A stretch of 64,000 nucleotides of DNA from positions 7,564,001-7,628,000 of the forward strand of contig NW_025963791.1 of assembly GCF_023055435.1 (NCBI RefSeq), read 5' to 3'. Positions 2,305 through 58,054 of the stretch are shown in pieces. How positions within the stretch are numbered: the stretch's first letter is position 1; every line of letters begins with the position of its first letter. The notes below the pieces were generated by a model. It saw only the letters and a list, made by a program, of their open reading frames with translations, was not told the origin of the DNA and did not search any database. Made by a program: the position numbers and the translations under genes. The DNA is from Haliotis rufescens. Lineage: Eukaryota.

Positions 2305-2451
2305 GCGTTTTGAAGGAGTAGTGGAATATATATATGAATGATATTGTATGACATAATAAACACTTTACTGTTGGCAGAAAAAAATGTCTTTCTGGGCGCC
2401 TGCCTATACCCTTAAAGACAATAAACAAGGACTAAAGACAATAAACAAGGA

Positions 2452-2603: not shown

Positions 2604-2649
2604 CAATAAACAAGGACGCAAAACCATGAATACGATGCTGACCAGACGA

Positions 2650-21689: not shown

Positions 21690-21777
21690 GGCCCACTTGC
21701 AGAAAGCGATCTTAGCTCTACGACTATTGTAAGCCTATGTTAAAGAATAAGATTAGATCGCTTTGTGTAAGTGGGCC
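21690..21777. mobile_element. 88-bp PIF/Harbinger-type MITE, present in every unit; it is the Polinton target in unit 4
   Basis: TIRs GGCCCACTTGCAGAAAGCGATCT / AGATCGCTTTGTGTAAGTGGGCC; 3-bp TSD CAG. Confidence 0.8.
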
Positions 21778-25987: not shown

Positions 25988-28900
25988 AATGCTTCGATAA
26001 TCTCGATAAATGAAGAGAGTACTGCAGTGCTGCTGTAGCTAGCTGAGACAATGTCAGACAATGGCGTGACATCACAATATCGCCTAATGACGTCATAGTG
26101 ACGTCTAGTCGGTAGATGTCGCTGTCCGTTCGGCGAAAATACCTTCGGAAGAAATCGGCATATTTCGTCTTGAGTGTGTTCCGATTGGTACACAGCCGAA
26201 ACATACTATGATCATGAGATGCGCCTTGTTCTTTGGTATTATTTCATGGGCTTATATCAAATGATTATGAACAATATCAATCCAAAAACTGTAAAAGGAA
26301 TTGGCGATATTTTCATGTGTTTTTTCAAATGTATTTCTTTTCTGAAAGAGATTTTTTTTTTATTGTGATCTATCAGTGGCATTTCACAATTGTATTTATA
26401 TCTGTAAACATGTGCTTGCGCAGGAAAGCAACAGGGAAATAGTTTGGTCAAGGCCAGATGAAAGTGTTGAAAAAACCCATTAAGGGTTGAAAAGTCCCTT
26501 CTGTGTTATCGGTAAAATGAGTGATTCAGTTGGGTTTTAAGGACGCATTTAACATAATTTCGGTTAAATAGCGGCGTGTCAGATGAATTATGTTTTTTTC
26601 TTAAACGTTTGTGAGGATGAAAACTCAGCATCGCTTCAAACTTCTTAGTTCGATACACGTCACTGAGTTACTCAAATATGGAAACTTCTACATCCTTCCG
26701 TATCTCTATTTTAGGTCTCAATTTGAAAACTGAAAATGACATGGACCAGTTATCCTTTTAAATTTCCCACCCTTTTTCTTGTTATTTTACGCCATGCACT
26801 GTTCATGATTATAGCAGATGGACCAGTTGTCTCGCGCGAGGCAAGACGCTGTGCAGACATGCGTCCTTCTTAGACGTACCATATACAGAATTCTCTGGTC
26901 GTCGGTTCTTGATTTGTAAGCACCATACAATAGGCTGGAGAATTCTCACTTAGCTTATGATAACATATGAATATGTTCCCGTGTTTGTTCAGGAGAACGC
27001 TTGACTTGCCTTTGTGTGTGTTTGTGACCGGTGAGGCAGGATATACTCCCCTTTTCGCCAACATCTGGTGTCATCACTATTTATTAGTGATTCAGAAATA
27101 CATCTTTATAATACATTCGGAATCGTACAATGGACGCTGCTTTTAGCAGAACTTTCTTATGATTATGGATAGAGTTTTGTCTATTATTTATGTCTATTAT
27201 ATAAGATATATATATATGTATATATGTTTTGTGTAGCCATCAATTCAACTAGCACCAAGGCCAGTACTAAGGGTATGCCCCCAGCCGATCACACAGGTCA
27301 TCAAAGGGTGTTGAATGAATCTAAAATATGTTGTATTCTTGTCCTGAAAAGATTAGTTTCAATTGAGTAGCCTCGTGGTTAAAGCTGTATTTGTTTGTTT
27401 GTTTGAGTTGTTGTTTAACACTGCTCTCAGCAATAATCCAGTTATATGACGGCGGTCTGTAAAATATCGAGTCTGGACCAGACAATCCAGTGATTGACAT
27501 CATGAAGATCGATACACGGAATTGTAATACGATGATATGCATCAACCAAGTCAGCGAGCCTGACCACCCGATCCCGTTAGTCGCCTTTTCGGCAAGCATG
27601 GGTTGCTGAAGACCTATTTTAACCAGGATCTTCACGGGTGAGTGGTAAAAGCGTTCTTAATGCCATAATAAATGTACAGTTGTAGGTGATTTAAAAAACA
27701 GAACAAAGAATATAACAGTATAATAAGACCATCCATTACAACACCATGTGTAGCAAAAGTTCAGTATGCAGTTTTCTTCAAACTGAAAGAAAACTGGTCA
27801 ACTTCACATGTCAATGCTGGAGAGATGTCCTGTTCAATTACTACGATTGTGGATGGTGGACATAAGTAGCATAGCTTTTGATATAACCTGGTGTAGAAAA
27901 GAAACGTTACCACCTGAAATTTGGACACGTTGTTTCCGAACCTTGAGCAGTGTTACATGCAAAATGGATGAGAATCAATCGCCTAAACACAACCAAAATA
28001 ATCTGCTGAGTGACACAGTACCCAGATCAATGGAAATTGAGTCTGAAGTGAAGATGCTGCTACAGGTGCAGCATGGCAACCAACAAACATACGGTTATTA
28101 AAGGAACGATGTACTGTTCATGCATACCCTAACCATTGGACAGTGACAAATAGCATGCCAAGATTAACGCTGCACCTGAGAGAACAAGGCGGAGATATGA
28201 TACATCAAGGAGCAATACATGACCAGGGCCCACTTGCAGAAAGCGATCTTAGCTCTACGACTATTGTAAGCCTATGTTAAAGAATAAGATTAGATCGCTT
28301 TGTGTAAGTGGGCCCAGGTCGCAAGGAGCTTTGCTGTAGCCGAATAACAGTCACCAGGCTCATGGCCCGTTTGGCCATCAATATTTTGTTATGTGTTTCT
28401 AATCTCCAACCTTAACCAACAAGAGAGCGGGCGGACCAACTTTGTAAAAAAGTAAACAATTTAAAAAGTGTTTTCAAATAATTGCGTAACATATTTTATG
28501 AAATTTTAAAGTTTAGAACACTTGGTAACAGCTCTTACTTTAATTTACTTCGAACCGTTAAATGTAGCGGCGTAATGGTTTGGGCCAAGTTAAGACAGAC
28601 CTTGTGATTTATGAAGGCAAATATATACTTCTGGACAGCGTTACATTGATCAAGTTCTCCGCCCTGTTGTACTACCGTTCTCATAAGAAAAATCCGGATC
28701 CTGTTTCAGCACGATAACACAAGGCCACATACAACGTCTCGCCTTCATCAGATAAGACTTATCACCCATAGAACACTCGTGGACCTCCTTGACCGTCAAA
28801 TTAGAGCACGGCCAGTTAGCCCTAAAACAGGGATCACAGAGCCCCGAGAAGACTGGCGTCGAATCCGTTAAAAACATGACTTTGCACACGAAATATTCGT

Positions 28901-32515: not shown

Positions 32516-35500
32516 AATGCTTCGATAATCTCGATAAATGAAGAGAGTACTGCAGTGCTGCTGTAGCTAGCTGAGACAATGTCAGACAATGGCGTGACGT
32601 CACAATATCGCCAAATGACGTCATAGTGACGTCTAGTCGGTAGATGGCGCTGTCCTTTCGGCGAAAATACTTTCGGAAGAAATCGGCATATTTCGTCTTG
32701 AGTGTGTTCCGATTGGTACATAACCGAAACATACCATGATCATGAGATGCTCTTTGTTATTTGGTATAATATCATGGGCTTATATCAAATGATTATGAAC
32801 AATATCAATCCAAAAACTGTAAAAGGAATTGGCGATATTTTCATGTGTTTTTTCAAATGTATTTCTTTTCTGAAAGAGATTTTTTTTTATTGTGAGCTAT
32901 CAGTGGCATTTCACAATAGTATTTATATCTGTAAACATATGCTTGCGCAGGAAAGCAACAGGGAAATAGTTTGGTCAAGGCCAGATGAAAGTGTTGAAAA
33001 AACTCATTAAGGGTTGAAAAGTCCCTTCTGTGTTACAGGTAAAATGAGTGATTCAGTTGGGTTTTAAGGACGCATGTAACATAATTTCGGTTAAATAGCG
33101 GCGTGTCAGATGGATTATGTTTTTTTCTTAAACGTTTGTGAGGATGAAACCTCAGCATCGCTTCAAACTTCTTAGTTCGATACACGTCACTGAGTTACTC
33201 AAATATGGAAACTTCTACATCCTTCCGTATCTATATTTTAGGTCTCAATTTGAAAACTGAAAATGACAAGGACCAGTTATCCTTTTAAATTTCCCACCCT
33301 TTTTCCTTGTTTTTTTACGCCATGCACTGTTCATGATTATAGCAGATGGACCAGTTGTCTCGCGCGCGTCAAGACGCTGTGCAGACATGCGTCCTTCTTA
33401 GACGTACCATATACAGAATTCTCTGGTCGTTGGTTCTTGATTTGTCAGCACCATACAATAGGCTGGAGAATTCTCACTTAGCTTATGATAACATATGAAT
33501 ATGTTCCCGTGTTTGTTCAGGCGAACGCTTGACTTGCCTTTGTGTGTGTTTGTGACCGCTGAGGCAGGATATACTCCCCTTTTCGCCATCATCTGGTGTC
33601 ATCACTATTTATTAGTGATTCAGAAATACATGTTTATAATACATTCGGAATCGTACAATGGACTCTGCTTTTAGCAGAACTTTCTTATGATTATGGAAAG
33701 AGTTTTGTCTATTATTTATGGAAGCTATATATGTATATATATATATGTTTTGTGTAGCCATCAATTCAACTAGCACCAAGGCCAGTACTAAGGGTATGCC
33801 CCCAGCCGATCACACAGGTCATCAAAGGGTGTTGAATGAATCTAAAATATGTTGTATTCTTGTCCTGAAAAGATTAGTTTCAATTGAGTAGCCTCGTGGT
33901 TAAAGCTGTATTTGTTTGTTTGTTTGAGTTGTTGTTTAACGCTGCTCTCAGCAATAATCCAGTTATATGACGGCGGTCTGTAAAATATCGAGTCTGGACC
34001 AGACAATCCAGTGATTGACATCATGAAGATCGATACACGGAATTGTAATACGATGATATGCATCAACCAAGTCAGCGAGCCTGACCACCCGATCCCGTTA
34101 GTCGCCTTTTCGGCAAGCATGGGTTGCTGAAGACCTATTTTTTTACCAGGATCTTCACGGGTGAGTGGTTAAAGCGTTCTTAATGCCATAATAAATGTAC
34201 AGTTGTAGGTGATTTAAAAAACAGAACAAAGAATATAACAGTATAATAAGACCATCCATTACAACACCATGTGTAGCAAAAGTTCAGTATGCAGTTTTCT
34301 TCAAACTGAAAGAAAACTGGTCAACTTCACATGTCAATGCTGGAGAGATGTCCTGTTCAATTACTACGATTGTGGATGGTGGACATAAGTAGCATAGCTT
34401 TTGATGTAACCTGGTGTAGAAAAGAAACGTTACCACCTGAAATTTGGACACGTTGTTTCCGAACCTTGAGCAGTGTTACATGCAAAATGGATGAGAATCA
34501 ATCGCCTAAACACAACCAAAATAATCTGCTGAGTGACACAGTACCCAGATCAATGGAAATTGAGTCTGAAGTGAAGATGCTGCTACAGGTGCAGCATGGC
34601 AACCAACAAACATACGGTTATTAAAGGAACGATGTACTGTTCATGCATACCCTAACCATTGGACAGTGACAAATAGCATGCCAAGATTAACGCTGCACCT
34701 GAGAGAACAAGGCGGAGATATGATACATCAAGGAGCAATACATGACCAGGGCCCACTTGCAGAAAGCGATCTTAGCTCTACGACTATTGTAAGCCTATGT
34801 TAAAGAATAAGATTAGATCGCTTTGTGTAAGTGGGCCGAGGTCGCAAGGAGCTTTGCTGTAGCCGAATAACAGTCACCAGGCTCATGGCCCGTTTGGCCA
34901 TCAATATTTTGTTATGTGTTTCTAATCTCCAACCTTAACCAACAAGAGAGCGGGCGGACCAACTTTGTAAAAAAGTAAACAATTTAAAAAGTGTTTTCAA
35001 ATAATTGCGTAACATATTTTATGAAATTTTAAAGTTTAGAACACTTGGTAACAGCTCTTACTTTAATTTACTTCGAACCGTTAAATGTAGCGGCGTAATG
35101 GTTTGGGCCAAGTTAAGACAGACCTTGTGATTTATGAAGGCAAATATATACTTCTGGACAGCGTTACATTGACCAAGTTCTCCGCCCTGTTGTACTATCG
35201 TTCTCATAAGAAAAATCCGGATCCTGTTTCAGCACGATAACACAAGGCCACATACAACGTCTTGCCTTCATCAGATAAGACTTATCACCCATAGAACACT
35301 CGTGGACCTCCTTGACCGTCAAATTAGAGCACGGCCAGTTAGCCCTAAAACAGGGATCACAGAGCCACGAGAAGACTGGCGTCGAATCCGTTAAAAACAT
35401 GACTTTGCACACGAAATATTCGTTAATTATACGACAAAACAGGACTTTCTCGCGAATCCAAATTTGAATGTTGGTGCTGAAAAAGAAGAACAGTGTGTGT

Positions 35501-39044: not shown

Positions 39045-40496
39045 AATGCTTCGATAATCTCGATAAATGAAGAGCGTACTGCAGGGCTGCTGTAGCTAGC
39101 TGAGACAATGTCAGACAATGTCGTGACGTCACAAGATCGCCCAATGACGTCATAGTGACGTCTAGTCGGTAGATGGCGCTGTCCTTCGGAAGATATCGGC
39201 ATATTTCGTCTTGAGTGTGTTCCGATTGGTACACAGCCGAAACATACCATGATCATGAGATGTGCTTTGTTATTTGCTATAATATCATGGGCTTATATCA
39301 AATCATTTTGAACAATATCAATCCAAAAACTGTAAAAGGAATTGGCGATGTTTTCATGTGTTTTTTCAAATGTATTTCTTTTCTGGAAGAGATTTTTTTT
39401 TTATTGTGAGCTATCAGTGGCATTTCACAATTGTATTTATATCTGTAAACATATGCTTGCGCAGGAAAGCAACAGGGAGATAGTTTGATCAAGGCCAGAT
39501 GGAAGTGTTGAAAAAACTCATTAAGGGTTGAAAAGTCCCTTCTGTGTTACAGGTAAAATGAGTGATTCAGTTGGGTTTTAAGGACGCATTTAACATAATT
39601 TCGGTTAAATAGCGGCAAGATGAATTATGTTTTTTTCTTAAACGTTTGTGAGGATGAAAACTCAGCATCGCTTCAAACTTCTTAGTTCGATACACGTCAC
39701 TGAGTTACTCAAATATGGAAACTTCTACATCCTTCCGTATCACTATTTTAAGTCTCAATTTGAAAACTGAAAATGACATGGACCAGTTATCCTTTTAAAT
39801 TTCCCACCCTTTTTCTTTGTATTTTACGCCATGCACTGTTCATGATTATAGCAGATGGACCAGTTGTCTCGCGCGCGTCAAGACACTGTGCAGACATGCG
39901 TCCTTCCTAGACGTACCATACACAGAATACTCTGGTCGTTGGTTCTTGATTTGTCAGCACCATACAATAGGCTGGAGAATTCTCACTTAGCTTATGATAA
40001 CATATGAATATGTTATCGTGTTTGTTCAGGCGAACGCTTGACTTGCATTTGTGTGTGTTTGTGACCGGTGAGGCAGTATATACCCCCATTTTAGCCAACA
40101 TCTGGTGTCATCACTATTTATTAGTGATTCACAAATACATGTTTATAATACATTCGGAATCGTACAATGGACTCTGCTTTTAGCAGAACTTTCTAATGAT
40201 TATGGAGTTTTGTCTATTATGTATTGAAGCTATATATATGTTTTGTGTAGCCATCAATTCAACTGTCACCAAGGCCAGTACTAAGGGTATGCCCCCAGCC
40301 GATCACACAGGTCATCCAAGGGTGTTGAATAAATCTAAAATATGTTGTATTCTTGTCCTGAATAGATTAGTTTCAATTTAGTAGCCTCGTGGTTAAAGCT
40401 GTATTTGTTCGTCTTTGTTTTTTGTTGTTTAACGCAATGCATGACCAGGGCCCACTTGCACAAATCTTAGCTCTACGACTATTGTAAGCCTATGTT

Positions 40497-40785
40497 AGTA
40501 GTTGTGTACATCTGTCTGGAACCGCTCAGGATTACAGAACTGCTCAGGATTACAGAACCGCTCAGGATTTCAGAACCGCTCCTGGCTTCTGATTGGTCGA
40601 GAGGATCACGTGACCTCTGTGACGTCACTTCCGGTCACGTGACCTGCGCATGCGCGCGGGGCATGATGGGACTTGCGCGCGCATCCAAGATGGCGGCACT
40701 TCCGTTTCCGGTCACGTGACCTGCACAGTGCATGATGGGTCCTGCGTGCGCCTCCAGTAGGGCGTCACATCCTTTTCCGGTGGCA
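40497..40785 (+). repeat. Left TIR of the Polinton (truncated internally)
   Basis: Reverse complement of 49756-50008, plus two extra copies of the 18-mer GAACCGCTCAGGATTACA. Confidence 0.95.
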
Positions 40786-41153
40786 ATACGAAAGAAGAAG
40801 AAACCGAAGTGCTGCGATGGTTCACCAAGAAAAGTCATCACCGAAACACATCTGTGCTGTATCTCACTCAGAACTTGTTTGCTCAATCGCCGCAACATCG
40901 CACCATCAGTCTGAATGCTCACTACATGGTCCTCTTTAAAAATCCGAGAGATGCATCGCAGATCGACAGTCTGGCTCGCCAGGTGTTTCCAGGCAAAGTT
41001 CCTTTTCTGAGTGAAGCCTATGAAGACGCTACCCGAGAGCCTTACACTTACCTGTTCTTGGACTTGAAGCCCACCACGTTGCAAGACCATCGCGTACACG
41101 CCGGCCTGTTTTCGAGATCCGAATTACCCCTCGTGTATGTGCCGATCCTATGA
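40786..41153 (+). pseudogene. FtsK/A32-like packaging ATPase, C-terminal half only
   Basis: FTKKSHHRNTSVLYLTQNLF..RTISLNAHYMVLFKNPRDASQI..LARQVFP..AYEDAT..PYTYLFLDL. Walker A and B are missing; the fragment is fused directly to the TIR. Confidence 0.92.
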
Positions 41154-41218
41154 GATGAAGAGATTTTCATAAAAGGAGGTGAAACCTCAGACCTTCCTTC
41201 AGTTGACCTACATCCATC

Positions 41219-42169
41219 ATGGGGCAAAGACGGAAACAGGTTCATCCTACGAAGGGAAAGAACAAAGACAAAGAGATGGTGAATGATGACAGTATGGTCT
41301 CCCCCTCATCGCTACAGGGACTTGTGACCTCTGTATTTCACAAGACTCCTTCACCTCCAGGATCGTCTCCCTCTTCAATGGTACCCGTGAACATACATTG
41401 TCAGCAGCAGCCATCACCACGTCCTTCAACATCATCAGCACCTTCGCCACCCTCGTCACCACATGATCTTCAACGCTTTCAACCTCTGCAACAGCAACAG
41501 CAGCAGCAGCAGAAGTCCACGCCAGGTACGTCTTACTCTTCGATGGTACCCTTGAACAAGCATCGTCAGGAACAACAACGGCCTTCCTCATCAGCACCCT
41601 CACCCCCACTCGATCTTCAACGCTTTAAATGTCTGCAGCAGCAGGAGCCCCCATGAAGTAAGAAAAAAGACAAGAGACCGCCTATTTTTCCGACAAGGGA
41701 TGCAACAACCCTTGCCGTCAAAGGAAGAAATCGTCTTTTGCAGTGGTTTGCGATTGTCATGCGGAACCTGAGAGCAGGACACATCCCATTGAAAGCTCAA
41801 CATAAGACGTGGTTGCAGAGACATAATGATACCCTGACTAAAATTGTCAATCCACGTCTGCCTATGGATGAACGTCTTGACTACCTGATGCAACGCAGTG
41901 GTAGTGGAACACTTGCAGGGGTCTTGACACGCATTCTGTTGCAATGGCAACATTATCTTCAAGCACCACTCCTCAAACAGGGTAACACCAGGCGTCACCG
42001 ACCTACAACAACAACAACGATGACTACTAAGCCAAAAGTAAAGGCTCATGAAAATGTCATGAAAGCATATCAAGCTGATGCTCTCAGACGATTGGTGCAC
42101 ATGCGGACCCAAAGAAAGTCCAAGAAGGCAGATCAACAGTTGCAACTCCCTCCTGCCACTGCCTGGTAA
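41219..42169 (+). pseudogene. Polinton protein: S/P/Q-rich N-terminus plus a helical domain paralogous to the next gene; one premature TGA at 41654
   Basis: ORFs 41219-41656 and 41738-42169 are in the same frame, and the sequence between them is open. Confidence 0.7.
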
Positions 42170-42226
42170 AAGAGAGAAGCTGCAGATCAGGTGACTCATT
42201 CAGGCTTTCACCTCCATGCAAGAAAG

Positions 42227-42557
42227 ATGTCTCAGTGCCTAAGGAAACAGAAACACGCTCTGTGTCATTTGTGTGCTGCCGCTCCAGCGATGCGCAAAGT
42301 CATTCTCAAACATGCTCCTACTGATCTCATCCGTGCCCTTTGTGAATGTGTGGTGAACTTGTATGCAGGTAATATTCCCATGACAACGACGCAACGTCAA
42401 AACTTGCAACGACCCGGTAAAGTCTTGAATACGCTCATGAAAAAAACAAGTACCTCTAAGCAAGAAACGTAAACTTCTTCAACATGGAGGAGGATTATTA
42501 GGAGGACTCATACCTCTTATTGGTTCTGCCCTAGCCTCTTTGTTTGGAGGAAAGTAA
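42227..42557 (+). pseudogene. Small basic Polinton virion protein with a Gly-rich amphipathic tail; frameshift near 42460
   Basis: RKVILKHAPTDLIRALCECVVNLYAGNIPMT, then the shifted frame KKRKLLQHGGGLLGGLIPLIGSALASLFGGK and stop. Confidence 0.8.
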
Positions 42558-42606
42558 TAAATGGTCTGACACCAGGAAGGTTGGGATCAGTGTGTGGTGT
42601 GCCACC

Positions 42607-43538
42607 ATGAAGTACGCACGCAAGATGGTGTTGATGTCTGAAGACACATGGCAAAGTCTACAGGCCACCAAACAACGTCATCGTCATACCCCTCTCTTGG
42701 AAAAGAAACGTCTCCAAAATTTGGAAGAGATGGACGCGTTGATGCAGAGGTCACAGCAGCCTTTCCACATGCGGGAACAACAATACAACCAACTGTTGCA
42801 ACACATGCTAGAGTTGCAGCGCCAACAGCACAACAACAACAACAACAGCAACAACAACACCATCAAACCACTACAACCCAAAGTGACACCACCACTACCA
42901 CCGTCATCACCATCAACAATGGACACCACAGGTAGACCTGCCCCTCCTCAACAAGTGATAGACGAAGTGGTCATGAGTGTTCCTAAAGCCATGTCCAGTA
43001 AAGCCATGAATTTTATGACAAGGATCTCGACTTGAGTTGGACTCCAGAGGGAACCCTGACCATGGAAGGGAAACCTGTCCCTTGCACACACATGGTGGAC
43101 TTGATCAACGATTTAGTGCGCCACCAGAAAACCAAAGAGGGACCTGCAGGTTGGACCATTTTGAGTCACCATTTGGCCAGCAGTCATGTCCCTCATGAAA
43201 TAATTGAAAATCCTCAACGATGGCAATTGATGCAGAAGCAGCAGCAGCAGCAACACCATCCTCATGCCATACCAGAAACACCCATAACCCTGTTCTCCCT
43301 CCCCACGTTCTCCCCGCAAAGTCACAATGAGAGAAGAAGAAGGAGGCGGCAGCTGGATCCACAAGCGGAAGAAGAAGAAGAAGAAGATGAGATGCCACCC
43401 CCACCTCCTTCGTGGCAACTGGATCCACCAGTGGAGGAAGAAAAAGATGTGATGTCAACCCCATGGTTGATGACTCCACCTCCATCTGATACCAAACAGG
43501 ACAGTCATCAACAGGCGAGGTTCATGGATACCCTTTAG
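42607..43538 (+). pseudogene. Conserved Polinton protein of unknown function; frameshift near 43030
   Basis: Kozak GCCACCATG; MKYARKMVL...QQYNQLLQ...SWTPEGTLTMEGKPVPCTHMVDLINDLVR...PAGW...HVPHEIIENPQRW. I am not sure which PW/PZ label applies. Confidence 0.75.
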
Positions 43539-43619
43539 CACCACCTAAGAAAAAAATAAATCTCTCCCCTTCTCTATAAAAAGGCCATTCATGTAGGAAG
43601 TGGCATCAGTCTGAGAGAA

Positions 43620-44874
43620 ATGAAGCGACAGACCAAGACGTGACAGCGCATTCTTCCCTCTGCTGCTGCTGCAGGGAAACAAAACAAAGGATTTCCTACT
43701 TCCCTTTGGACGGCCTGGTTGGAAAAAACCTACTTTCATCCTGAACATCCTGCAAGTTTTGGAGGCTGGCGACCTTTGTGGAAAGCAGAACGCATCCACG
43801 CTCAAGATGCAAGAACCAGTAAAAGCAAGAAGAAAACCAAGCCATCGCAAAGTCAAATCAAGCGTTGGTTGCAAACCAAAAGTACCTACACCTTGCACAC
43901 ACCAGCCAGACGCTCCTTTCCGAGAGACCACTATTCATGTGGGAGGGGTCGATGAACTGTGGCAAGCAGACTTGAGTGACATGATTGCCTTTCAAGACGA
44001 CAACGAAGGATTCAAATATCTGCTGTGCGTGATCGATGTGTTTTCAAAGATGGCATGGGTGCAACCCCTGAAGGCCAAGAGGAGTTCTGCTTTGACCGAA
44101 GGTTTTCAAACCTTGCTGATGCAACAAGCCAAAGATTGACTCCCTGCTCAATTGCAAACAGACAAAGGCAGAGAATTTGTCAACCGTCCTTTCCAGGCTC
44201 TCATGACGAAGCATGGCATTCATTTCTACACCAGTCAAAATCCTGAAACGAAAGCAGCCGTGGTGAAACGGTTTCAAAGGAAAATGTGGCGATACTTTAC
44301 ACAGCATGGGGCCAGACACTATTTGAAAGTCTTACCCCAGTTGATCAAGTCATACAACCGTCGTGTGCATCGGACCATTGGCCAGCGACCTGTGGACGTC
44401 CTCCCAGGAGATCCCCTGTCAGAAATTCGGGTGTTAGACTACATGGAGGAAAAACAACAACAACGGCTTCAGCGCAAAAAGAAAATAACAACACAAAGAC
44501 AAGACCCCAAGACAAGACCCCCCTCTCTTTTACTGCCGGGCACCCGTGTACGTCTGAACAAAACCAAAGGCACCTTTGAGAAAGGTTATCTCCCCAATTG
44601 GACCACTGAACTGTTTACGGTGGACCGGTTGGTAACAGGGAGAACACCTCCTGTGTATCGGATCAAAGATGATCATGGTGAAGTCCTCCAAGGAACTTTT
44701 TACCCTGAAGAAATACAACCCATCTTGAAAACAGACGATGTGTATGCCGTGGATCACGTGCTAAAAAGACGTCAACGACCGAAACAGGGTCAAGAAGAGG
44801 TCTTGGTGAAATGGACTGGCTACCCTGCCAGTTTTAATTCTTGGATCGCTGCAGATCATTTACAGATAAAATAA
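43620..44874 (+). pseudogene. Retroviral-type (rve) integrase with a C-terminal chromodomain, inactivated
   Basis: YFHPEHPASFGG, WQADLSDM..YLLCVIDVFSK, LQTDKGREF, FEKGYLPNWT, VLVKWTGYPASFNSW. Stops at 43641 and 44137, a frameshift near 43925, and the catalytic E replaced by K (KAAVVKRF). Confidence 0.95.
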
Positions 44875-44919
44875 GGAGCATGCTGTCTCTCAGACTCATT
44901 CAGAGGGTGGACACACGTG

Positions 44920-45375
44920 ATGACAGAACCGCCACCACCACCACCACCGTCATCACCTCTGCAGAGAAGCCTCTCAGCATCCGTGGGTACCGATGAACCT
45001 ACCCTTGCTGCTGCACCTCGTCATCACCAGCGCCGACACTCACCTTGGTGTTGTTTTGGCATGACGTTACACCGCAGTGAAGTTGTGTTTTTTGCTCAGA
45101 TCATTGTGATATATGGCGTGATCATCATGAGCATGGTACAGTTGGCCTTGGATCACGGAGAGAAACAGTTGTGGACAGCCCTGCTCTCAAGTTGTTTAGG
45201 ATACATACTTCCACCACCCACCTTGGCCGCCTCACCAGGCATACCCACGACAACCCACCCACCAGAAGACTTCAACTTGATACCTCATCCACCCAGAGTT
45301 TTCTACCTTAGCTCATGTCATCATGGCTGTCACCTTTTTTTCGAAACAAGACTTTTACATGACCCTACCCAGTGA
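44920..45375 (+). CDS. Small two-transmembrane Polinton protein
   Basis: Hydrophobic segments VVFFAQIIVIYGVIIMSMVQL and LWTALLSSCLGYILPPP; has its own TATA-like/Inr pair upstream. Confidence 0.65.
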   Translation: MTEPPPPPPPSSPLQRSLSASVGTDEPTLAAAPRHHQRRHSPWCCFGMTLHRSEVVFFAQIIVIYGVIIMSMVQLALDHGEKQLWTALLSSCLGYILPPPTLAASPGIPTTTHPPEDFNLIPHPPRVFYLSSCHHGCHLFFETRLLHDPTQ

Positions 45376-46343
45376 TGCCTCCATGGACATCTATCCAAAC
45401 AACACCATCAATGCGTATGAAATCAAGTTGCCTTATCCTCTGATTCTGGACCGTCAACAGTGGGAGGTTGGCGTCAGCAAAATTCACTTTCCGATGACAT
45501 GGTACAACGTCGCCCCACCCTTTGACTGGTTTGCGCTGAACCTCAAACTGAAAAAAGACACCCTTGTGTATGAAAGCATGGGGAGCGCTATACCACAGCC
45601 ACAGTATGGTATCGTCCGTTACGAAAGCAAGAAGATTCCAATCGAGAAAGGCGTCTCTTCATCTGAAGATTTGGTGAAAACCCTCAACCGTTTGATTCAG
45701 GAACATATTACGGATGTCTTGAAAGAACAGCCCTCAGACAGAGTCCAAAGTGATGGAAGACGGTTTGTCATTGATGTCAGGTATCCCAAAGATAGTCTTC
45801 GATTTGACATGCTTGAAGATGGAAAGGTGCGATTACAAGCCCCTCAAGAAGTAGCAATCAATCATCCTCTCCTGGGAAATACTGGTGGACCACTCTATTC
45901 CACGGAAGTGATCATGCCAAGTCCACTCTCGAGAATGCTCGCATTTGTTCAACTACCGATCCTCGGTGAGGAGGACTATAAAACCTACACAGAGACGCCC
46001 GTTCCCTTGACTGCCTTGGCCCAGTGGCAAGTGGGGGCTACTCCCATGACAAGTGGCTATGTGGAAATCACAGCTGATACAAAAGCACATCGTCTGTCAG
46101 GATTTGATACTGTGTACATTTACACCAACCTGGTCGAAGATCAAATTGTGGGCAACACAGATGTCAAAGAAGATGATGCAAGACAGTGTGGTGATTAAAA
46201 GCCCTCAGCACATTCACTACCTTGGGCTGCGTCATGGTTCCTTTGACGGTATTAAACTCTATATCATGGACGACACGGGGCAACCCGTGCCATTTCAAAT
46301 GGGGAAAGCCATCGTGACACTTCACTTCAGACGCCGCTACTAA
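45323..46343 (+). pseudogene. Minor capsid protein (penton, PX); frameshift/deletion near 46165
   Basis: FYMTLPSDASMDIYPNNT..WEVGV..IHFPMTW, VYIYTNLVEDQIVG, IMDDTGQPVPF..GKAIVTLHFRR. Confidence 0.9.
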
Positions 46344-46356
46344 CGCAGAAAGCAAC

Positions 46357-46731
46357 ATGTTGGGACACGCATTGGCACACCAGATGAATCGAGGACAGTT
46401 TGGCCAGTGTGGGAGTGGTATCAAAGTATACAAAGGACGTTATCATCAACGTGGCAGTGGTCTTGGAGGTATCTTGAAGATGGCGTTGCCTTTCCTTAAA
46501 TCTGCCGGAACATCAGTGCTCAAGATGGGTAAAAAGATCCTGCCTGGGTTGGTGAGTGATGTGGTTGGAGGCAAACGCAAATGGTCAGAGAGTCTGAAAC
46601 ATCGCGGCACAGCAGCCCTGATGGATGTCTTGGAGGAACGTGAGGAGCCGAGACCCCCTGAAAGCCGTAAAGTCGTCCCAACCACCATCACCCACCAGAA
46701 ACAGCGTAAAAGGAAAAGAAAAACGGTTTAA
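46357..46731 (+). CDS. Basic core/cement-like virion protein with QxGxG motifs
   Basis: QCGSGIKVYKGRYHQRGSGLGGILKMALPFLK and a basic C-terminus KRKRKRK; lies between penton and hexon. Confidence 0.8.
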   Translation: MLGHALAHQMNRGQFGQCGSGIKVYKGRYHQRGSGLGGILKMALPFLKSAGTSVLKMGKKILPGLVSDVVGGKRKWSESLKHRGTAALMDVLEEREEPRPPESRKVVPTTITHQKQRKRKRKTV

Positions 46732-46806
46732 AGGTCAGTCCTCATCAGACTTTCAACCTGACCAGACGTCCTTCAAGGCAGAGAAAAGGGTGAAACATCC
46801 ATCATC

Positions 46807-48136
46807 ATGATGCGCCGAGATGCTTGCGAATGTTCAAAGGCCCAGTTGGATCTCTTTACTGTACCCCCTGTGTCCACCTCTGTGCAAGAGGGTCAGTGGA
46901 TTTGTTATAGTCCCATGGCACCACCCTCTGTAGCAGGACCACTCCAGTTTAACATTTCCAATCCCGTGAACGCTTACATTGATTTGAAACAGTGCTACCT
47001 GAGAGTATGTCTACGTGTGATGAAAGATGATGGCACGGATACCGTTCTAGCGGATTACCCTGTATCGACAGTCAACAATGTGATACATTCCCTGTTTCGC
47101 GAAGTGCGGCTGCAAGTGGGACACAATCAGTTGGAGATCACACCCTCCATGGGCACTTACCCTTACAGAGCCTACTTGGAAACCCTGGAAAGTTATGGTA
47201 CAGGAGCCAAAACATCTCACCTTCGATGTCCTGGATGGTTCACCAACGATGCTAGTAAAATGGACGTCTTCAATCCTGATGCAGATGCGAACACAAGAAA
47301 CACAGGTGTCAGAACGCGACGCGATCTTATCATATCCAGCCAAAGAAGTGGAACTGACAGGCCGTCTACACTGTGACCTGTTTCTTCAAGACCGTTATCT
47401 GCTGGATGGTGTCCCTATGAAACTGGAATTGTTACGAAGTCCCGATGAGTTCTTCTTCATGTGTGCTGCTGATGGTGTCTACAAACTAGCGCTGACCAAA
47501 GCCGAATTCTATGTCCGTCAGCTCAACATCGATCCTGCTGTCCGAGAAACACACGTGTCCAGTCTGAACGCTGGGGTGACTGCCAAGTATCCCCTTTCAC
47601 GTGTGCATGGGACTGCCCATGACATCCCGAGAGGCGGTAGGGACTTTCACAAGGATCACCTAATCAGTGGCCAATTACCAAAATGCGTGGTCCTGGGACT
47701 GGTGGACAATAGTGCCTACGTAGGAAGCAAAGAGAAGAATCTGTACAACTTCAAACACAATCATGTCACCATGATGAAGCTCAAAGTCAATGGCCAGGAA
47801 GTCCATGGCACGGAAATGAAAAGCGACTTCAGCAACAACAGTGCCCATTTGAAACAAGTCTACATGAATCTGTTCCGAAACACGGGGCAGCTATGGCGAC
47901 CTGAGACCTGCGAACTGACTCCCAAGGCCTTTACTCAAGGTTACACCTTGTGGGTGGTGGATCTCACCCCAGACCTTGGCGCTGATGAAGGCATCAACTA
48001 CCCTCAACACACTGGCAAGTCGGGTTTGGAAATCCAGTTTGGACAAGCTCTCGAGGACCCAGTCACCCTCATCTGCCATGAGGAATACGAAAATGTTCTG
48101 GAAATAGATCGTTTCCGGAATGCGATGATGGTATAA
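46807..48136 (+). pseudogene. Major capsid protein (hexon-like double jelly roll, PY); frameshift near 47335
   Basis: CECSKAQLDLFTVPP, NNVIHSLF, TYPYRAYLETL, GRLHCDLFLQDRYLLDGV, AKYPL, GQLPKCVVLGLVDNSAY, GYTLWVVDLTPD. Confidence 0.93.
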
Positions 48137-48189
48137 AAAGAGCAGCGACAGACGGTCATGCCACACTTTTTCTCCTCCTACAAGGAACC

Positions 48190-48757
48190 ATGGATGAACC
48201 ACTCGGGTTGAGCACCTTGGATTTAGAAGCCCTCGTGGCTGATGACGAACCACTTCATGCCATCTACCGGGGCACCCTGGCCAGAGATGAATTTGCCAGA
48301 CTGGGATGGCCCCTTTTACCCCAAAGCCTACGTGATCAACACAGATTTAAGCGATCAACCTGGCACACACTGGGTGAGCATCTATCGTCCAGCTCCTGGA
48401 TCCGTGGAAATGATGGATAGCTATGGACTGTATTCATTACCCCTGTTTAAAGAGACTTTGAATCGCATGGGTCAGATTCAACAACGATGGAATACACGCC
48501 CCTTACAACATGGATACAGCACGTTGTATGGGGTGTACTGTCTCTACATGCTGACCTATCGCGTGCGTGGGTGGACTTTTAATCAAGTGTTAGATACGTT
48601 GGACTGGAAGGACACCGCCAAGAATGATGCCACGGTATTAGCATGGTTTCATACCAAAGTGTCTACCTCCGTACCTGTGGATGAGATGCCTGCCTTTCGA
48701 CTGAGTGCCCAGACGCGTACCCTACATCAAAAGAACCAACCTTTCTGCCCTTATTGA
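48190..48757 (+). pseudogene. Adenain-like cysteine protease; frameshifted near 48300, catalytic Cys replaced by Tyr
   Basis: YVINTD..PGTHWV (His), DSYG (Asp), PLQ (oxyanion Gln), and STLYGVYC where STxCG is expected. Confidence 0.9.
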
Positions 48758-49604
48758 CAGGACACTTGTTCACTGAACCTACGATCACCTGACTGTCAAC
48801 ATTCCTGATTGAGGAGTGTACATACGTTCACTGCGTTTTAGGAATGTACATACGTTCACTATCAAAGTGGCAAATGTTCTTTTTTTTCAAACTGTACATA
48901 CGTTCACATACGTGTACATACGTTCATGTTCACAAAAGTCACAGGGACGCCCCTAATCCTGTGACTTTTGTTTTGTTGTGTTTGTTCATGTGAGCGGGGC
49001 ATTAAAAAAAGTTGAACCCATAGTAGTGTTGTGTTGTCTGTAAGATGAAGAAAAACAAAACAGGATCGCCATGCACACCCCAGAGAAAACCAAAACCAAA
49101 ACAAAACAAGATCGACATCTGACCGCTTCCTGCATTCCTACACCACGTCCATGTCTGTCGATTCACCTTTAGAAATTCAGGCAACACCTTTAGCACCTTT
49201 AAATTCACTTTCCGACTGTCACTTAGACGAACGACTGTCATAGTGGGCTACAATACACGATCGCCTTGTGGAACGAAACCTTACAACTCAAAGTTTACAA
49301 TCACATGACATGATTTGTGGAATGTTGTTGCAAGATTCTTCGCCGATATGACGTCAACCTAGCAACAAAGTGGCAGAGTCGTCGACTGTGTATGATAACT
49401 TTGATAAGCTCGTCTCAGTGAGCTATCATCTCCACATGCCATCACCCCACACCCACCAAAACAAAACAAAACAAAGAACCCGACTCCCCTCCCTCCTTCT
49501 TCCCTCCCTTCACCACCACCCTCCCTTCACCACCACCACGTCAATGTTTAGAACAACAACAAAAGATTTTTGACGCGCTTCTTTCAATGTCGATCCTGTT
49601 CACC

Positions 49605-50008
49605 TTTTACGTGCGCTTCTCCGGGTTTTCCCCTCCTCCCCGGAAACGGAGGCGACGCCCTCTTGGAGGGGCGCACGCCACCGGACACGGATGCGACGTC
49701 CTCTTGGAGGTGCGAACGCCACCGGACACGGATGCGACGCCATCTTGGATGCGCGTGCCACCGGAAAAGGATGTGACGCCCTCTTGGAGGCGCACGCAGG
49801 ACCCATCATGCACTGTGCAGGTCACGTGACCGGAAACGGAAGTGCCGCCATCTTGGATGCGAACGCAAGTCCCATCATGCCCCGCGCGCATGCGCAGGTC
49901 ACGTGACCGGGAGTGACGTCACAGAGGTCACGTGATCATCTCGACCAATCAGAAGCCAGGAGCGGTTCTGTAATCCTGAGCGGTTCCAGACAGATGTACA
50001 CAACTACT
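49605..50008 (-). repeat. Right TIR plus three further 41-bp GC-rich subterminal repeats
   Basis: 49756-50008 pairs with the left TIR; CCACCGGACACGGATGCGACG..CTCTTGGAGG units continue inward. Confidence 0.92.
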
Positions 50009-53000
50009 TATGTTAAAGAATGAGATCGCTTTGTGCAAGTGGGCCCAGGTCGCAAGGAGCTTTGCTGTAGCCGTATAACAGTCACCAGGCTCATGGCCCG
50101 TTTGGTCATCCATATTTTGTTATGTGTTTCTAATCTCCAACCTTAACCAACAAGAGAGCGGGCGGACCAACTTTTTTAAAAGTAAACAATTAAAAAAAAT
50201 GGTTTCAAATAATTGCGTAACATATTTTATGAATTTTTAAAGTTTAGAACACTTGGTAACAGCTCTTACTTTAATTTACTTTGAAACGTTTTAATGTAGC
50301 AGCGTAATGGATTGGGCCAAGTTAAGACAGACCTTGTGATTTATGAAGGCAAATATATATTTCTGGACATCGTTACATTGACCAAGTTCTCCGCCCTGTT
50401 GTACTACCGTTCTCATGAGAAAAATCCGGATCCTGTTTCAGGACGATAACACAAGGCCACATACAACGTCTTGCCTTCATCAGATAAGCAGACTTATCAC
50501 CCATAGAACACTCGTAGACCACCTTGACCGTCAAATTAGAGCACAAGTTAGCCCTTATAGCAAGTGAAGACTGGCGTCGAATCCCCACATCTTCTTCCTA
50601 TCCCGTCGTCGACTTGGCAGGCCGTGTGCATTGATGCCCGATGTGGACACACGCGATATTGCCTGAAACCTGTGACATTCTGAAGTGTCATGTCTTGACT
50701 TCAGTCTTGATGGTTGATCGTCTACTGAACAATGAACCCCAACCTCAAAACCGTCGATACAATACCTACGATACAATGTTCTCATCCTCGGCATTACTTG
50801 TAATGACGTTAATTCATGTCTTTTGAGTAAACAAGTATCTTCCATGACATTCGTCCTGTTCTCATTTTAGGAACACTGTTAGTCGTTAACGCTTCTTTTT
50901 CTCATCAGTTTAGGCTGTTGCAGTACATATAATGTTTATGTTGTATTTTCTTTTCCAAGTAAGGATAAATGATGCTTAATGGGCGTTTCATATCACAGTC
51001 AACAACTATTTCACTCACATCACAGCGGCACAATTGAGTCAATAACCTTGTCCAATCATATGACAGAGTGGCTTGTTTGGTGTGGCTTCTTGAAATGGAA
51101 GAATTGAAATGATTATTAATAAATTAATAATGTGTTACAGGCATGGTTTCGCTCCTGCTCACGTCTCTACGTCAAAAACATGACTTTGGTCACGAAATAC
51201 TCGTTAATTATACGTTAATTATATGTTTCTCATCTAAAGATTTTCACCGAGAAAATAAATGTTTAGCCGCGACGTTACGAAGTTTTAGCCATGGTCAAAG
51301 GGAGACAATTCAATCTATTTTAATTCCATTGGGTAACGCTATGGTCATTGTAGCACAATGAATATCATTGTTACTGCAGTGCCGATTTACCCAATTTGGC
51401 ATAAGCCCATATCACATTAAATCAAAAACGACGGTACAATATATTTTTTTATGATGGCAAGTGCAGACGACATGACGTATGCTTTAGGATTTACCGATCT
51501 AAAGCCTGGACCTGTTTGTTTGCCACTCAGCAATATTCCATCTATATGACGGCCGTCTGTAAATAATCGAGTCTGGACCAGACAATCCAGTAATTGACAT
51601 GAGCATCGATCTACGCAACTGGGATATGATGACATGCATCAACCAAGTCAGCAAGCCTGTCAGTGACCACCCGATCCCGTACGTCCTCTCTTACAAGCAT
51701 AGTCAGTCGCCTCTTGAGACAGGCATTGATTGCGGAAAGGCAATTCTAACCCGGATCTTCACCCGTCTAAATCCTTGCGGTTAGTAGCAGTTAACAGCAG
51801 TAAGGTCGTCTTTACTTATTTTTGTGTTTCTCATCTCCAAGGTTTTCCTAGAGGGGCGAGCGGGCGGGAAGAAAAGGTTCATTATTGCAGAATACTTATT
51901 TGAGGCTTTGACGAACTATACCAAATATTTAGACATATGTCTGGTCGGCTATTATGTTTTAGGAATATTTTTTTTATTCATTAAATAAGAATGACCTTAT
52001 CTTGTTAGGTTTAAATTTTACGACAAAGAAATATTATTTCCTTAGTGAAGAAAGATATATTTTAAAAGCATTCGCAAATTCCAGAACTATTTTATTTTAT
52101 AAGCATAGAATTAAACTGAGTTTTATGCAAATATGCATTAGAATGTATTGAACGTTCTGGAGATAAGACAGTAAATCGAAGCATGCACTGGTGTATATTT
52201 GTAATAGTGGTATTTGCCCGATACGGTTGGCTACCCTATCAGTTTCATCTATATTTATATGAAGTATGAAATGACAAACTATACGTACGTATAGATGGAA
52301 TCATTGTTAATGTTACCAAATTGGATCATTGCAAGTGAACCAGCTTGGGATGTGTTTGTGTTGGTTTGAACCGACCTTTTCTGGTACAAAGTCACTTTTA
52401 CTCGGAGTTTTTCAAAAGTGGTAGTAACTTACGTCCACTTAAACGACAAAGGCTGCACAACCCCGAACTTTATAAATAACATAGATGACCGTCTATGTGA
52501 TTGCAATTGTAGCAGGTTTTCGTGACAATTACTTTATCAAATATCAGGAGGTAGGGGGAGACGAGAAACACAAAAATAAGTAAGGACGCTTACGACACGT
52601 ATCAGGTACAGAGGTCTTAATCTAACCAGGAATACTGCAATGTAATTGATGAATTTCAAGCAAGAATGAAACAAACACTTCAGAACAGAACAAACACACA
52701 CTTTATAAAGCCTATAACAAAACATTGATAGAAGTAACAAAAAAATATATTTTATTGCAATGTACTTTGTATCACATGCCCAAAATTGTTTATTTAAATT
52801 TATGGATACTTAAGACTGATTTGTCAAATTGTAATAAAACAGGATCGTTGTTCTAAAAAGTTCTAAACTATTTCTATAATTCATATCAATATTAACAGTT
52901 CATCTAGCACAAGAATAATTTCTTGATCCATCTGAAGACACACGAGCAGCAGGCTGCAACAAATGATTGTGTCTGCACAGACACCATAGAGGGCTGAGGG

Positions 53001-56257: not shown

Positions 56258-56783
56258 CTTTTCAACCCGTAATCATTTCTTTGTAACATTTTTGTGGTGT
56301 TGACCAAACGTCTTCCATGTTGTACAAACACATGTTTACAGATAAATAAACAATTGTGAAATGCTAAAATGACCGATGACAATATCACAAAGCTCACAAT
56401 TCAAATCCCTTCCAGGATTAAAGCCAATTCCTTTTACGGCTTTCGGATAAATATTCTTAATAATGATTTGATATTAGCCAATGATATGATTGTTGAGAAG
56501 GAGGCATCGACATAATACAAAAGAACAAAGAGCGTCTATAACGATCTAAATTTCGGCTGATATGTAGCAATCGGAACACACTCAAAACGAAGTCTTCCGA
56601 AGGTAGGGACGACAGTGAAATCTACAAGCTGCCAACAGAGAGCGCTGACATAATCAGTCATTTTTGTCCAGACTTGTCTGAAATAGCCGAATCTAAACTG
56701 GTTCCACAGTTGGTACGCGACGCAAGCTTAGGACGATTTAGTGTAGGTAGACATATAAGAAATCTAGACAAGACGGGTCGCTA

Positions 56784-56812
56784 TGACGTCATTAGGCAAT
56801 ATTGTGACGTCA
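56784..56812 (+). promoter_or_regulatory. Paired full CRE palindromes upstream of orphan gene copy 5
   Basis: TGACGTCA at 56784 and 56805, about 90-110 bp before the ATG. Both are intact in copies 3 and 4; one is TGACATCA in copies 1 and 2. Confidence 0.55.
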
Positions 56813-56891
56813 CGCCATTGTCTGACATTGTCTCAGCTAGCTACAGCAGCACTGCAGTACACTCTTCATTTATCGAGATTATCGAAGCATT

Positions 56892-58054
56892 ATGCCAGTC
56901 ACCAGACGTCTGACCGTGTCCGAGTGTGAAGGGTTTGATTCCGAGGTAGCGGAGTGTTTTTCACGTACAGAACTGATAGGTATGTGCCGTTATATATAAT
57001 GCCAGAATTTAACTTCAAAGAGGGTTTAAGAATCAACCACTGTATATCCACCACTTCCTTATATTAATTTTATATGAGATATTTGATTTACACTTGCCAA
57101 AAGGGTGGTGATTCTATACTAAATCCGGTTATTGCTATTTCAGAGTTTCATGATTCGGTTCCCAAACACGTCACAGTAAAACCAAGACCAGTGGCAAGGC
57201 GTCTGACCGTGTCCGAGTGTGAGGGCTTTGATTCCGAGGTAGCGGAGTGTTTTTCACGTACAGAACCGACAGGTATGTGTGCCGTTCGTACGTTTAACTT
57301 TCGTATCCCTGCAACTTCATTTGAAACAATAGTTTCTGTATCAACTTATTTTTCTTTCACTTATTTAATACAGTAAATGCATATGTGCTGATGTTAGACC
57401 TACCATTGAGTTAATTATAGACTAAATACCATAATTGTGCTTTCAGAGTTCCATGATTTGGTTCCCAGACACGTCACAATAAAACCAAGACCTATTCGTC
57501 CCGAGCCACCATTCCAATGGGACTGTAGTAAAAACGAAAAACAAGCCAAGGAGCACGAGCTCCACGTTCAGCTGACGGCGGTCCTGGTTGAGGTGGACAT
57601 TCTCCGGGCTGACCTACGAGATGCACGACTCCGTTCCCAATGTCTGAAACTGAAGAACCAACATCTTCAGAGACAAGCCAGACAACTCTCGGAGGAGAAA
57701 GTCTCCCTCGGGGAGCAGGTGGATCGCTTGGTGAAGGAGGTGGACATGTTGAGAGGTGAAAGACTGCGTGTACATTCAGGAGAGGGAGAGGGTGTTGGAC
57801 TTGTTCAGAGGTCAGGGGCTACACAGACCACGTGTTTTGACCACATTATCCAATCAAAGAATGGAATGCCTCGTGAACAAGACAATAGGTCAACAAGACA
57901 TCATGAACTCTCTCAAAGTAGTCTGTCATCAAAGAAACGTATGTCATCAAGCACAACCAATTTAATAGAAAACTGTAATCAGAAACAAAATGTACAAAAG
58001 TCAAAATCTTTTTTTGGTCGTTTTACAAAACTGTTCAGAAGAAACAAATGTTAA
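56892..58054 (+). CDS. Orphan repeat/coiled-coil protein, inverted copy 5. Exons 56892-56979, 57144-57272, 57447-58054 (274 aa)
   Basis: First ATG after an in-frame TAG (56838). Donors AG|GTATGT and acceptors TTTCAG|AG. Exons are conserved with copies 1-4 while introns diverge. Confidence 0.8.

Follow-up and report, generated by a model that had tools for sequence, protein, structure and literature searches.

The window, a 64,000-nt stretch of Haliotis rufescens contig NW_025963791.1, contains a Polinton-like element that begins with AGTAGT at 40497 and ends with ACTACT at 50008, with the 6-bp target-site duplication (TSD) TATGTT flanking each end. In the surrounding 6.5-kb host tandem repeat, a flank search identified three sister units with a single TATGTT, which represent empty sites. 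The element carries 10 co-oriented genes, most of them interrupted (Table 1). A profile search of the whole window for a protein-primed polymerase (pPolB) gave no match at E ≤ 0.1. The first-pass annotation, made from the sequence alone, had described AGTAGT...ACTACT terminal inverted repeats (TIRs), a 6-bp TSD with its empty site in the window, nine or ten co-oriented genes and no pPolB, and our searches bore out each of these points.

Table 1. Features of the element and its target site (window positions)
Feature	Position	Strand	Remarks
Empty site, sister unit of host tandem repeat	21736..21741		
Empty site, sister unit of host tandem repeat	28273..28278		
Empty site, sister unit of host tandem repeat	34796..34801		
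Left TSD, TATGTT	40491..40496		
Left TIR, begins AGTAGT	40497..40785	+	Shortened by private deletion
A32/FtsK-like packaging ATPase, 3′ half	40786..41153	+	PF04665 over cut-off in a relative
Low-complexity ORF	41219..42169	+	Relatives have about 317 aa; window copy has one internal stop
Small conserved ORF	42227..42556	+	109 aa in relatives, 81 aa in window copy; end approximate; homologue in all three monopartite families
ORF, about 320 aa in relatives	42607..43538	+	Frameshift splits window copy
rve integrase with C-terminal chromodomain	43620..44874	+	PF00665 and PF00385 over cut-off in a relative; frameshift and stops in window copy
Small ORF with hydrophobic stretch	44920..45375	+	Putative membrane protein, by inspection
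Probable penton (minor capsid protein)	45323..46343	+	Label from gene position and Atlas lead; frameshift close to 3′ end
Small basic ORF, probable core protein	46357..46731	+	No informative Pfam match
Double jelly-roll major capsid protein (MCP)	46807..48136	+	Assigned from modelled fold; one frameshift in window copy
Adenain-like protease	48190..48757	+	192 aa in relatives; frameshifted in window copy
Non-coding stretch common to class B2	48924..49089		82-88%
Subterminal stretch, part of class B1 long TIR	49090..49490		In a minority of A copies only
Right TIR with internal tandem units	49488..50008	-	Inner limit approximate
Right TSD, TATGTT	50009..50014		

Judging by its modelled fold, the MCP gene encodes a double jelly-roll capsid protein: an alignment-based fold of a relative's ORF (pLDDT 89) matched the Sputnik MCP with E 2e-16 and TM 0.66, and was used in place of a single-sequence fold of pLDDT 28. 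The protease assignment draws on PF00770, which did not reach cut-off (its E-value was 0.0016 in a one-piece homologue), and on an Atlas lead. The probable penton, in Polintons a single jelly-roll protein, has no Pfam match, and an Atlas lead points to the Sputnik V18/19 cluster, at 26% of members and with recognition short of the threshold. A PDB sequence search for capsid and protease returned nothing informative. The small basic ORF upstream of the MCP is what we take to be the core protein, following adintovirus maps.

The left TIR is shorter than the right and runs into the ATPase mid-gene, as the first-pass annotation had noticed. It is 289 nt long, compared with about 430-650 nt in relatives, and the junction lies at 40785/40786 with an overlap of 2 nt. 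Between the left end and the junction base the window copy has 288 nt, whereas all 10 relatives that were measured have 1328-1590 nt. The loss is small, about 1.0-1.3 kb, and comprises the inner left TIR, the 5′ half of the ATPase and an upstream reverse zinc-knuckle-like frame. The junction has a single match in the 1.33-Gb genome and was found in 0 of 16 relatives, so the deletion is private to this copy; its use as the tag of a mobile defective lineage is thereby ruled out. A unique junction had been expected to indicate an ordinary post-insertion deletion. That reading stands for the left end but fails for the polymerase, since the deletion took TIR and ATPase only and all 16 relatives of the window copy are likewise without pPolB; the private deletion therefore did not cause its absence.

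These relatives belong to a class, here called A, comprising 16 independent insertions with 16 different 6-bp TSDs, mostly 9.2-10.5 kb long. Independent TSD-bounded copies on many contigs rule out an assembly artefact. Class A elements encode the ATPase, integrase, capsid genes and protease, and the pPolB profile matched 0 of 34 class A stretches. They contain no helicase, primase or other polymerase ORF, and no unassigned long ORF that could be a candidate pPolB replacement as in PLVs or Tlr1; the NS1 family, a feature of Bidnaviridae, was absent among the scanned ORFs. The other option raised at first pass, a helper-dependent lineage with capsid plus integrase only, thus appears to be the right one.

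A second class, B, shares the TIR family of A, has its own TSDs and carries pPolB with accessory genes on elements of mostly 9.5-11.9 kb. Both ends and a 6-bp TSD were recovered for 13 elements, the TSD being exact in 10 and having one mismatch in 3. Two subtypes occur, B1 and B2, the accessory genes of the latter including two BIR proteins and a zinc knuckle. The pPolB profile matches 43 of 49 class B stretches and six A-gene profiles match 0 of 49, with integrase, capsid, ATPase and protease absent. Another 20 young pPolB loci all have B1 or B2 genes downstream and no A gene, and in 19 of the 20 a TIR stands at most 5 kb away. Young B2 elements keep both flanks of the ATPase gene, but the gene itself is gone. 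Full-length pPolB-positive relatives had been proposed as a target for a search with the TIR; relatives with pPolB and that TIR do exist, but they are the capsid-less, integrase-less class B. The likely helper of class A, on this pattern of genes and termini, would itself be a half: class B with the same ends.

Several comparisons tie the two classes together. Over the outer 200 nt of the TIR, the median difference is 12.5% for A-B, 13.9% for A-A and 10.7% for B-B pairs, and a TIR tree needs 8 class changes where the minimum is 2, indicating that A and B ends are intermixed; some A copies also contain B1 end DNA. Left-right TIR difference, a measure of insertion age, is 2.8% in A and 2.7% in B (p=0.79). 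Nucleotides 7-26 of the TIR differ at about 8 of 20 positions between elements versus 0-2 between the ends of one element (23 of 25 pairs, the remaining two being out of register), as panhandle copying predicts; those of the window copy's left TIR are the same as at its right end. Shared variants are under purifying selection in both classes, with omega of 0.17-0.28 in four A genes and 0.15-0.29 in pPolB; private variants gave 0.3-0.9, a difference with p<0.001 for A and B alike.

On young copies the two gene sets also lie apart. A B-type pPolB was found within 20 kb of 0 of 35 young class A loci (at least 90% identity), and in the one assembly covered neither the 35 young A loci nor the 49 young B loci included a joined copy. 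Two young B elements have A remnants at most 20 kb away, but a TIR stands between and they are separate. For the ATPase, 0 of 31 young loci were near pPolB by distance, and direct reading then found two exceptions, both ATPase loci at 92% with a decayed pPolB upstream. The essential genes are thus divided without overlap between A and young B, while the ATPase is still common to older B forms. These genome searches scored the best 131-150 of 216-1949 candidates, and weak remnants were consequently missed.

From all these comparisons, we consider it probable that an originally monopartite Polinton divided into two segments that complement each other, A with integrase and capsid and B with the polymerase. 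With similar confidence, we favor reading the window element as a degraded A segment from this split Polinton/adintovirus lineage. Segment A (about 10 kb) would supply packaging ATPase, integrase, minor and major capsid proteins, core protein and protease, and segment B the protein-primed polymerase and accessory genes. We infer that priming by the pPolB of B takes place at the AGTAGT termini of A and B alike and that this polymerase uses a panhandle to copy one TIR onto its partner; the integrase of A would insert both. The weakest step is packaging, in which the capsid of A probably encloses both A and B. Historically, a one-piece ancestor may have given rise to A and a pPolB+ATPase form, the latter then losing an ATPase that it no longer needed; recombination probably took place at a CCAAT-rich module of 110-130 nt that recurs between genes. 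A further proposal, which we hold tentatively and at somewhat less than even chances, is that A and B are co-infecting segments of a bipartite dsDNA abalone virus, both in A-encoded double jelly-roll capsids, replicated by B's polymerase and integrated by A's integrase. The host genome would then keep a fossil series from joined forms through pPolB+ATPase to pPolB alone.

The best-surviving alternative, although we think it unlikely, is that A and B are ordinary non-autonomous families mobilised by a complete one-piece helper. This could be another member of the lineage, exogenous or missing from the assembly, or else the distant one-piece Polintons that the genome carries. One-piece forms of the lineage did exist: six decayed joined relics are present, together with about ten decayed pPolB+ATPase forms, and both branch earlier. 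Two trees speak for the split: in the hexon tree four joined relics fall outside the young A clade (82/89), and in the pPolB tree, a quick search in which decayed rows are pulled rootwards, the young B clade sits above a ladder of old pPolB+ATPase forms (SH-aLRT 96). The ATPase tree resolves little, with 1 of 23 branches starred. The six joined relics may instead be A x B recombinants, in which case one-piece forms would recur. Three one-piece families in the genome carry pPolB, the A genes in A's order and BIR, a point in favor of the split; their 1239-1296-aa pPolB frames and AGTAGT ends mean that they could help in trans. However, blastn found no TIR similarity to A or B beyond that hexamer, and these families are few relative to A and B copies. 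Of 11 A-type capsid accessions on record for H. cracherodii, 1 adjoins a B-type pPolB accession, and polB-less polintons are reported to be mobile beside complete relatives in Pieris mannii (10.1101/2025.02.07.637071). Against a complete helper stand the young A and B loci without a joined copy and the exactly complementary gene sets under purifying selection, which parasites of such a helper need not keep.

We give far less credence to A being copied by host enzymes without pPolB, with B a separate capsid-less polymerase element that borrows integrase. A does have its own integrase and capsid, and the genome holds many other integrases, but A lacks a helicase, primase or polymerase ORF, keeps AGTAGT at its ends with the panhandle-like pattern at nt 7-26, and has ends intermixed with those of B, including B1 end DNA in some copies. 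Loss of the polymerase from an ordinary Polinton after insertion, suggested by the unique junction and the mostly interrupted genes, is refuted by a deletion that held no pPolB and by 15 other independent insertions with different TSDs and the same pPolB-less plan, and holds only for the small left-end deletion.

A resembles Polintons/Mavericks in its AGTAGT TIRs, 6-bp TSD, rve integrase with chromodomain, A32-like ATPase, double jelly-roll capsid and adenain-like protease, and its gene order is that of the three one-piece families in the same genome; B resembles them in its PF03175-type pPolB. Unlike in Polintons, pPolB and integrase are never together on one young A or B element. Yeast pGKL1 and pGKL2 are also two protein-primed linear DNAs maintained together, one depending on the other, although each has its own pPolB and neither has a capsid or integrates. 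The A and B pieces are about 10-12 kb each versus about 17 kb ± 10% for intact vertebrate Polintons (PMC8097293). Like A, the polB-less polintons of Pieris mannii are TIR-bounded and mobile with capsid and integrase; there, polB stays in highly similar, more complete polintons and its loss coincides with TE cargo. The available text of that account describes no capsid-less polB class (10.1101/2025.02.07.637071), whereas in the abalone there is a complementary class, and no young complete relative was found. Bidnaviruses and Drosophila Vesanto virus likewise have segmented genomes in which one segment bears pPolB and the termini match from segment to segment (PMC8502044, PMC8363768). Their genomes, however, are ssDNA, their NS1 and capsid are of parvovirus type, and they have no integrase; the A/B lineage is dsDNA, integrating and double jelly-roll. 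Tlr1 elements, PLVs and transpovirons are Polinton-related and lack pPolB or the capsid module (PMC11071308), with pPolB replaced by another replication protein or with dependence on giant viruses. In contrast, A has no replacement gene and B's ends are those of A.

Polintons are defined by pPolB and integrase in a single molecule. A survey rule requires the two at most 20 kb apart (10.1101/2024.01.15.575659), and under it the halves of a split pair would be taken for debris with no connection to each other. We found no description of a split Polinton in the literature outside subscription journals, Repbase and supplements. If correct, an integrating virus with two segments and a double jelly-roll capsid would bring a new genome plan to the Polinton group and be a dsDNA parallel to bidnaviruses, and because intermediates are kept as dated insertions, the origin of segmentation would be testable from genomes. 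The split also bears on Polinton virions, as A's capsid genes are under purifying selection though A cannot copy itself, and B is similar in length to A though pPolB needs only about 4 kb.

A point against the split is that the nearest one-piece relative by capsid, in H. asinina at 73%, has a pPolB only 44-48% identical to that of B, which implies that one lineage swapped its polymerase. Among viral contigs there were two pattern matches, none of them confirmed. In two sequencing runs that we guess to be RNA but are possibly DNA, contigs cover 28-29 of 30 bins, and 15 of the 23 joints listed do not include the left junction; in a small-RNA run 6 reads matched the element.

The termini, 6-bp TSD and in-window empty site claimed by the first-pass annotation are confirmed for the window copy (table), and a flank search found the empty site, with a single TATGTT, in three sister units of the 6.5-kb host repeat. 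The element was also said to lack pPolB, and a profile search of the whole 64-kb window indeed gave no match. The left TIR (289 nt) differs from the right end by a 36-nt tandem insertion and six mismatches in 215 inner nt, and is followed by ten genes, all in one orientation. Relative to the frames that occur naturally in other copies, the ATPase is missing the 5′ half, a 317-aa ORF has one stop, and frameshifts split a 320-aa ORF, the integrase, penton, capsid and protease. In relatives, the integrase with its chromodomain and the A32-like ATPase score above Pfam cut-offs, and the predicted fold of one capsid (pLDDT 89; best structural match Sputnik, E 2e-16, TM 0.66) matches the double jelly-roll type. 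Protease and penton labels are weaker leads, and one further gene we take to be a 'core protein'.

Coordinates of the window copy and of other features in the window and at related loci
Feature	Sequence	Position	Description
Window copy	window	40497-50008	AGTAGT at 40497 to ACTACT at 50008; TATGTT flanking both sides (TSD)
Host tandem repeat, ~6.5 kb	window	14736-40435, 50009-51659; inverted copy ~56760-58135	93-98% alike from unit to unit; every unit has an open frame of 324-332 codons (weak coiled-coil match only, no clear family)
Folliculin gene exon	window	8530-9036	PF11704, E 9e-39
Minisatellite	window	12476-13130	19-nt period
Minisatellite	window	13429-13962	89-nt period
Different Polinton-like gene cluster	L005 (oriented)	191-5845	just beyond left TSD of a class A copy
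Three class A copies without left terminus	L007, L008, L014 (contig C60, oriented)	~6180-7460	each downstream of a 427-aa RING/B-box (TRIM-like) gene, inside a duplicated block
Class A copy	L066	5764-6837	N-terminal C2H2 zinc finger extends ATPase frame

In the 1.33-Gb genome, the left TIR/ATPase junction is found at a single place. Searching with the element's DNA identified 16 other loci at 88-96% identity (17 of 1857 candidates scored), and in 13 of the 16 the alignment starts at the exact junction base. Read upstream of this point, all 16 relatives continue into the 5′ part of the ATPase (where that is present) and from there into the left TIR, leaving no space for a 4-kb gene. Between the left end and the junction base, all ten relatives measured have 1328-1590 nt and the window copy 288 nt; these lengths and upstream reads indicate that the window copy privately lost ~1.0-1.3 kb and that the polymerase was not within that deletion. 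The first-pass expectation that a unique junction would mark an ordinary deletion therefore stands, but not as an account of polymerase loss.

These relatives belong to class A, ~10-kb elements with ATPase, integrase, capsid genes and protease. Both ends and the TSD were resolved in 13 of 15 paired loci (two C60 copies lack the left terminus), two of the 13 being one duplicated insertion; counting the window copy and three more, the total is 16 independent insertions, no two of which share a TSD. Paired loci measure 9.2-10.5 kb, except one of 18.2 kb carrying an insert, and internal deletions shorten some copies. The pPolB profile matched none of 34 A stretches and the capsid profile 18, a count excluding L005, where another Polinton-like element lies in the far flank outside the TSD. 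Three TIR-bounded loci of ~0.9-5.8 kb (L052, L060, L064), in which no pPolB or capsid genes were detected, are small non-autonomous derivatives.

The genome contains 171 copies of a 22-nt motif from the inner TIR, and among the 100 motif sites listed several facing pairs flank pPolB matches without a capsid match. Such pairs bound class B elements, whose pPolB frames reach 1303-1461 codons and contain exonuclease and polymerase motifs. Subtype B1 has long TIRs and also encodes a 400-aa low-complexity ORF; in B2, pPolB is accompanied by two BIR proteins, a zinc-knuckle protein and two unknown ORFs. Thirteen B elements were resolved at both ends and have a TSD (10 TSDs exact), and nine of the 13 computed lengths are 9.5-11.9 kb, the remainder being deleted or duplicated. 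Two B elements of 17.2 and 14.0 kb (L041/L042, L043/L044) carry a tandem duplication of pPolB. Profiles for ATPase, integrase, penton, capsid, protease and core protein, built from class A and from homologues in Polintons holding pPolB and A-type genes on one DNA (one-piece families), matched 0 of 49 B stretches. Downstream reading of 20 further young pPolB loci gave 17 B2 and 3 B1, no A gene downstream of pPolB, and a TIR within 5 kb in 19. Since B elements have 6-bp TSDs but no integrase, they were inserted in trans.

Over the outer 200 nt of the TIR, the median difference is 12.5% between A and B (156 pairs), 13.9% within A and 10.7% within B. Left and right TIRs differ by 2.8% in 12 A versus 2.7% in 13 B elements (p=0.79), which argues that both classes inserted over the same period. 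Directly behind AGTAGT, nt 7-26 show ~8 of 20 differences between elements of any class, though their genes are 95% alike, whereas the two ends of a single element differ at 0-2 positions in 23 of 25 pairs (the script left 4 of the 29 elements unpaired); turnover of origin specificity and escape from host silencing are candidate causes. By these nucleotides the nearest end to that of the window copy is from a B1 element, and the right subterminal 400 nt of the window copy are part of the long B1 TIR and found in few A copies. On the TIR tree, class has to change 8 times, against a minimum of 2 and a mean of 10 on shuffling. A 110-130-nt CCAAT-rich module, a putative promoter, is repeated between the genes of all three element types (A, B1, B2); we did not find it in the one-piece families. 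From natural copies, using two-allele columns only and with small counts, omega for variants in at least two loci was 0.17-0.28 in four A genes and 0.15-0.29 in pPolB, versus 0.32-0.89 for private variants (Fisher p 0.0005 and 0.0008).

The analysis shows complementary gene sets, common ends, TSDs, matched ages and selection, and we consider it probable that A and B complement each other. The pPolB of B would copy both DNAs, a panhandle would make the two ends of each element equal, and the integrase of A would insert both alike; polinton pPolB is described as fused to a terminal protein (PMC11071308), and end repeats as permitting jumping-back priming (PMC8097293). Packaging of B in A capsids, which the similar lengths fit, is the least supported step, and a true two-segment virion is a tentative possibility at somewhat under even odds.

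A hidden complete helper mobilising both classes is unlikely. In genome-wide lists of capsid, integrase and both pPolB ends (one coordinate per locus, distant families omitted), 5 of 70 A loci lay within 20 kb of one of 148 listed B-type pPolB loci, and none of the 35 at ≥90% identity did; two of 49 young B loci lay that close to A, both as separate elements with a TIR in between. Six decayed joined relics (L075/76, L077/78, L082/83, L087, L092, L135) each have a different internal deletion and a pPolB at ~70-83% nucleotide identity to young B. At about ten more decayed loci, an A-type ATPase follows pPolB or the B genes that neighbour it, with no capsid nearby among the matches listed. By distance, 0 of 31 young ATPase loci were near pPolB, but reading showed two at 92% to be of this decayed kind; upstream of 20 ATPase loci, 9 had a clean A arm and 4 a B arm, and 7 were uninformative. 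Young B2 keeps both ATPase flanks, the gene itself being gone. Copying of A without pPolB is very improbable, set against ends held in common with a pPolB-bearing class. On many contigs, another abundant family has a near-identical ~600-codon ATPase-like frame (35% to A ATPase) and integrases (~40%) that often face each other at a distance of a few kb.

A single A or B element fails the definition of a Polinton, whereas under mutual complementation the pair would work like one, and the novelty is this reciprocal pair. We found no split Polinton in the literature, where supplements, Repbase and subscription papers may hold similar cases. Mobile polB-less polintons have been reported alongside complete relatives (10.1101/2025.02.07.637071), a C. 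elegans preprint legend mentions pPolB near TIRs without integrase (10.1101/2024.01.15.575659), and the ssDNA bidnaviruses include segmented viruses with pPolB (PMC8502044, PMC8363768).

Three one-piece families occur in the genome, two measured end to end (16.3 and 16.5 kb). Each has pPolB followed by the A genes, ordered as in A, and finally BIR; identity is 31-54%, and there is no TIR match. In the pPolB tree (quick search), 10 old rows linked to an ATPase or capsid branch off one after another below a 17-row young B clade (SH-aLRT 96); in the capsid tree, four joined relics and one old A copy fall outside the young A clade (82/89) and within the family (100/100). Sequence breaks were entered as unknown residues, and because decayed rows tend to fall basally, it is likely rather than proven that joined or ATPase-linked forms branched first; the joined relics may instead have arisen by recombination at the shared ATPase or at the module.

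The closest database homologues carry Haliotis names, which makes an abalone the probable host. Capsids of A type (95%) and pPolBs of B type (~90% to B2) both occur in H. cracherodii, where 1 of 11 listed capsid accessions is near a pPolB-cluster accession. Among the capsid accessions listed for H. asinina (~70-73% to A), 11 of 18 are no more than 4 numbers away from such an accession, which suggests a one-piece family, accession order being only a proxy in both species. Identity between the pPolB of H. asinina and that of B is 44-48%, pointing to a polymerase swap in one of the two, an event also reported from nematode Polintons (10.1101/2023.08.22.554363).
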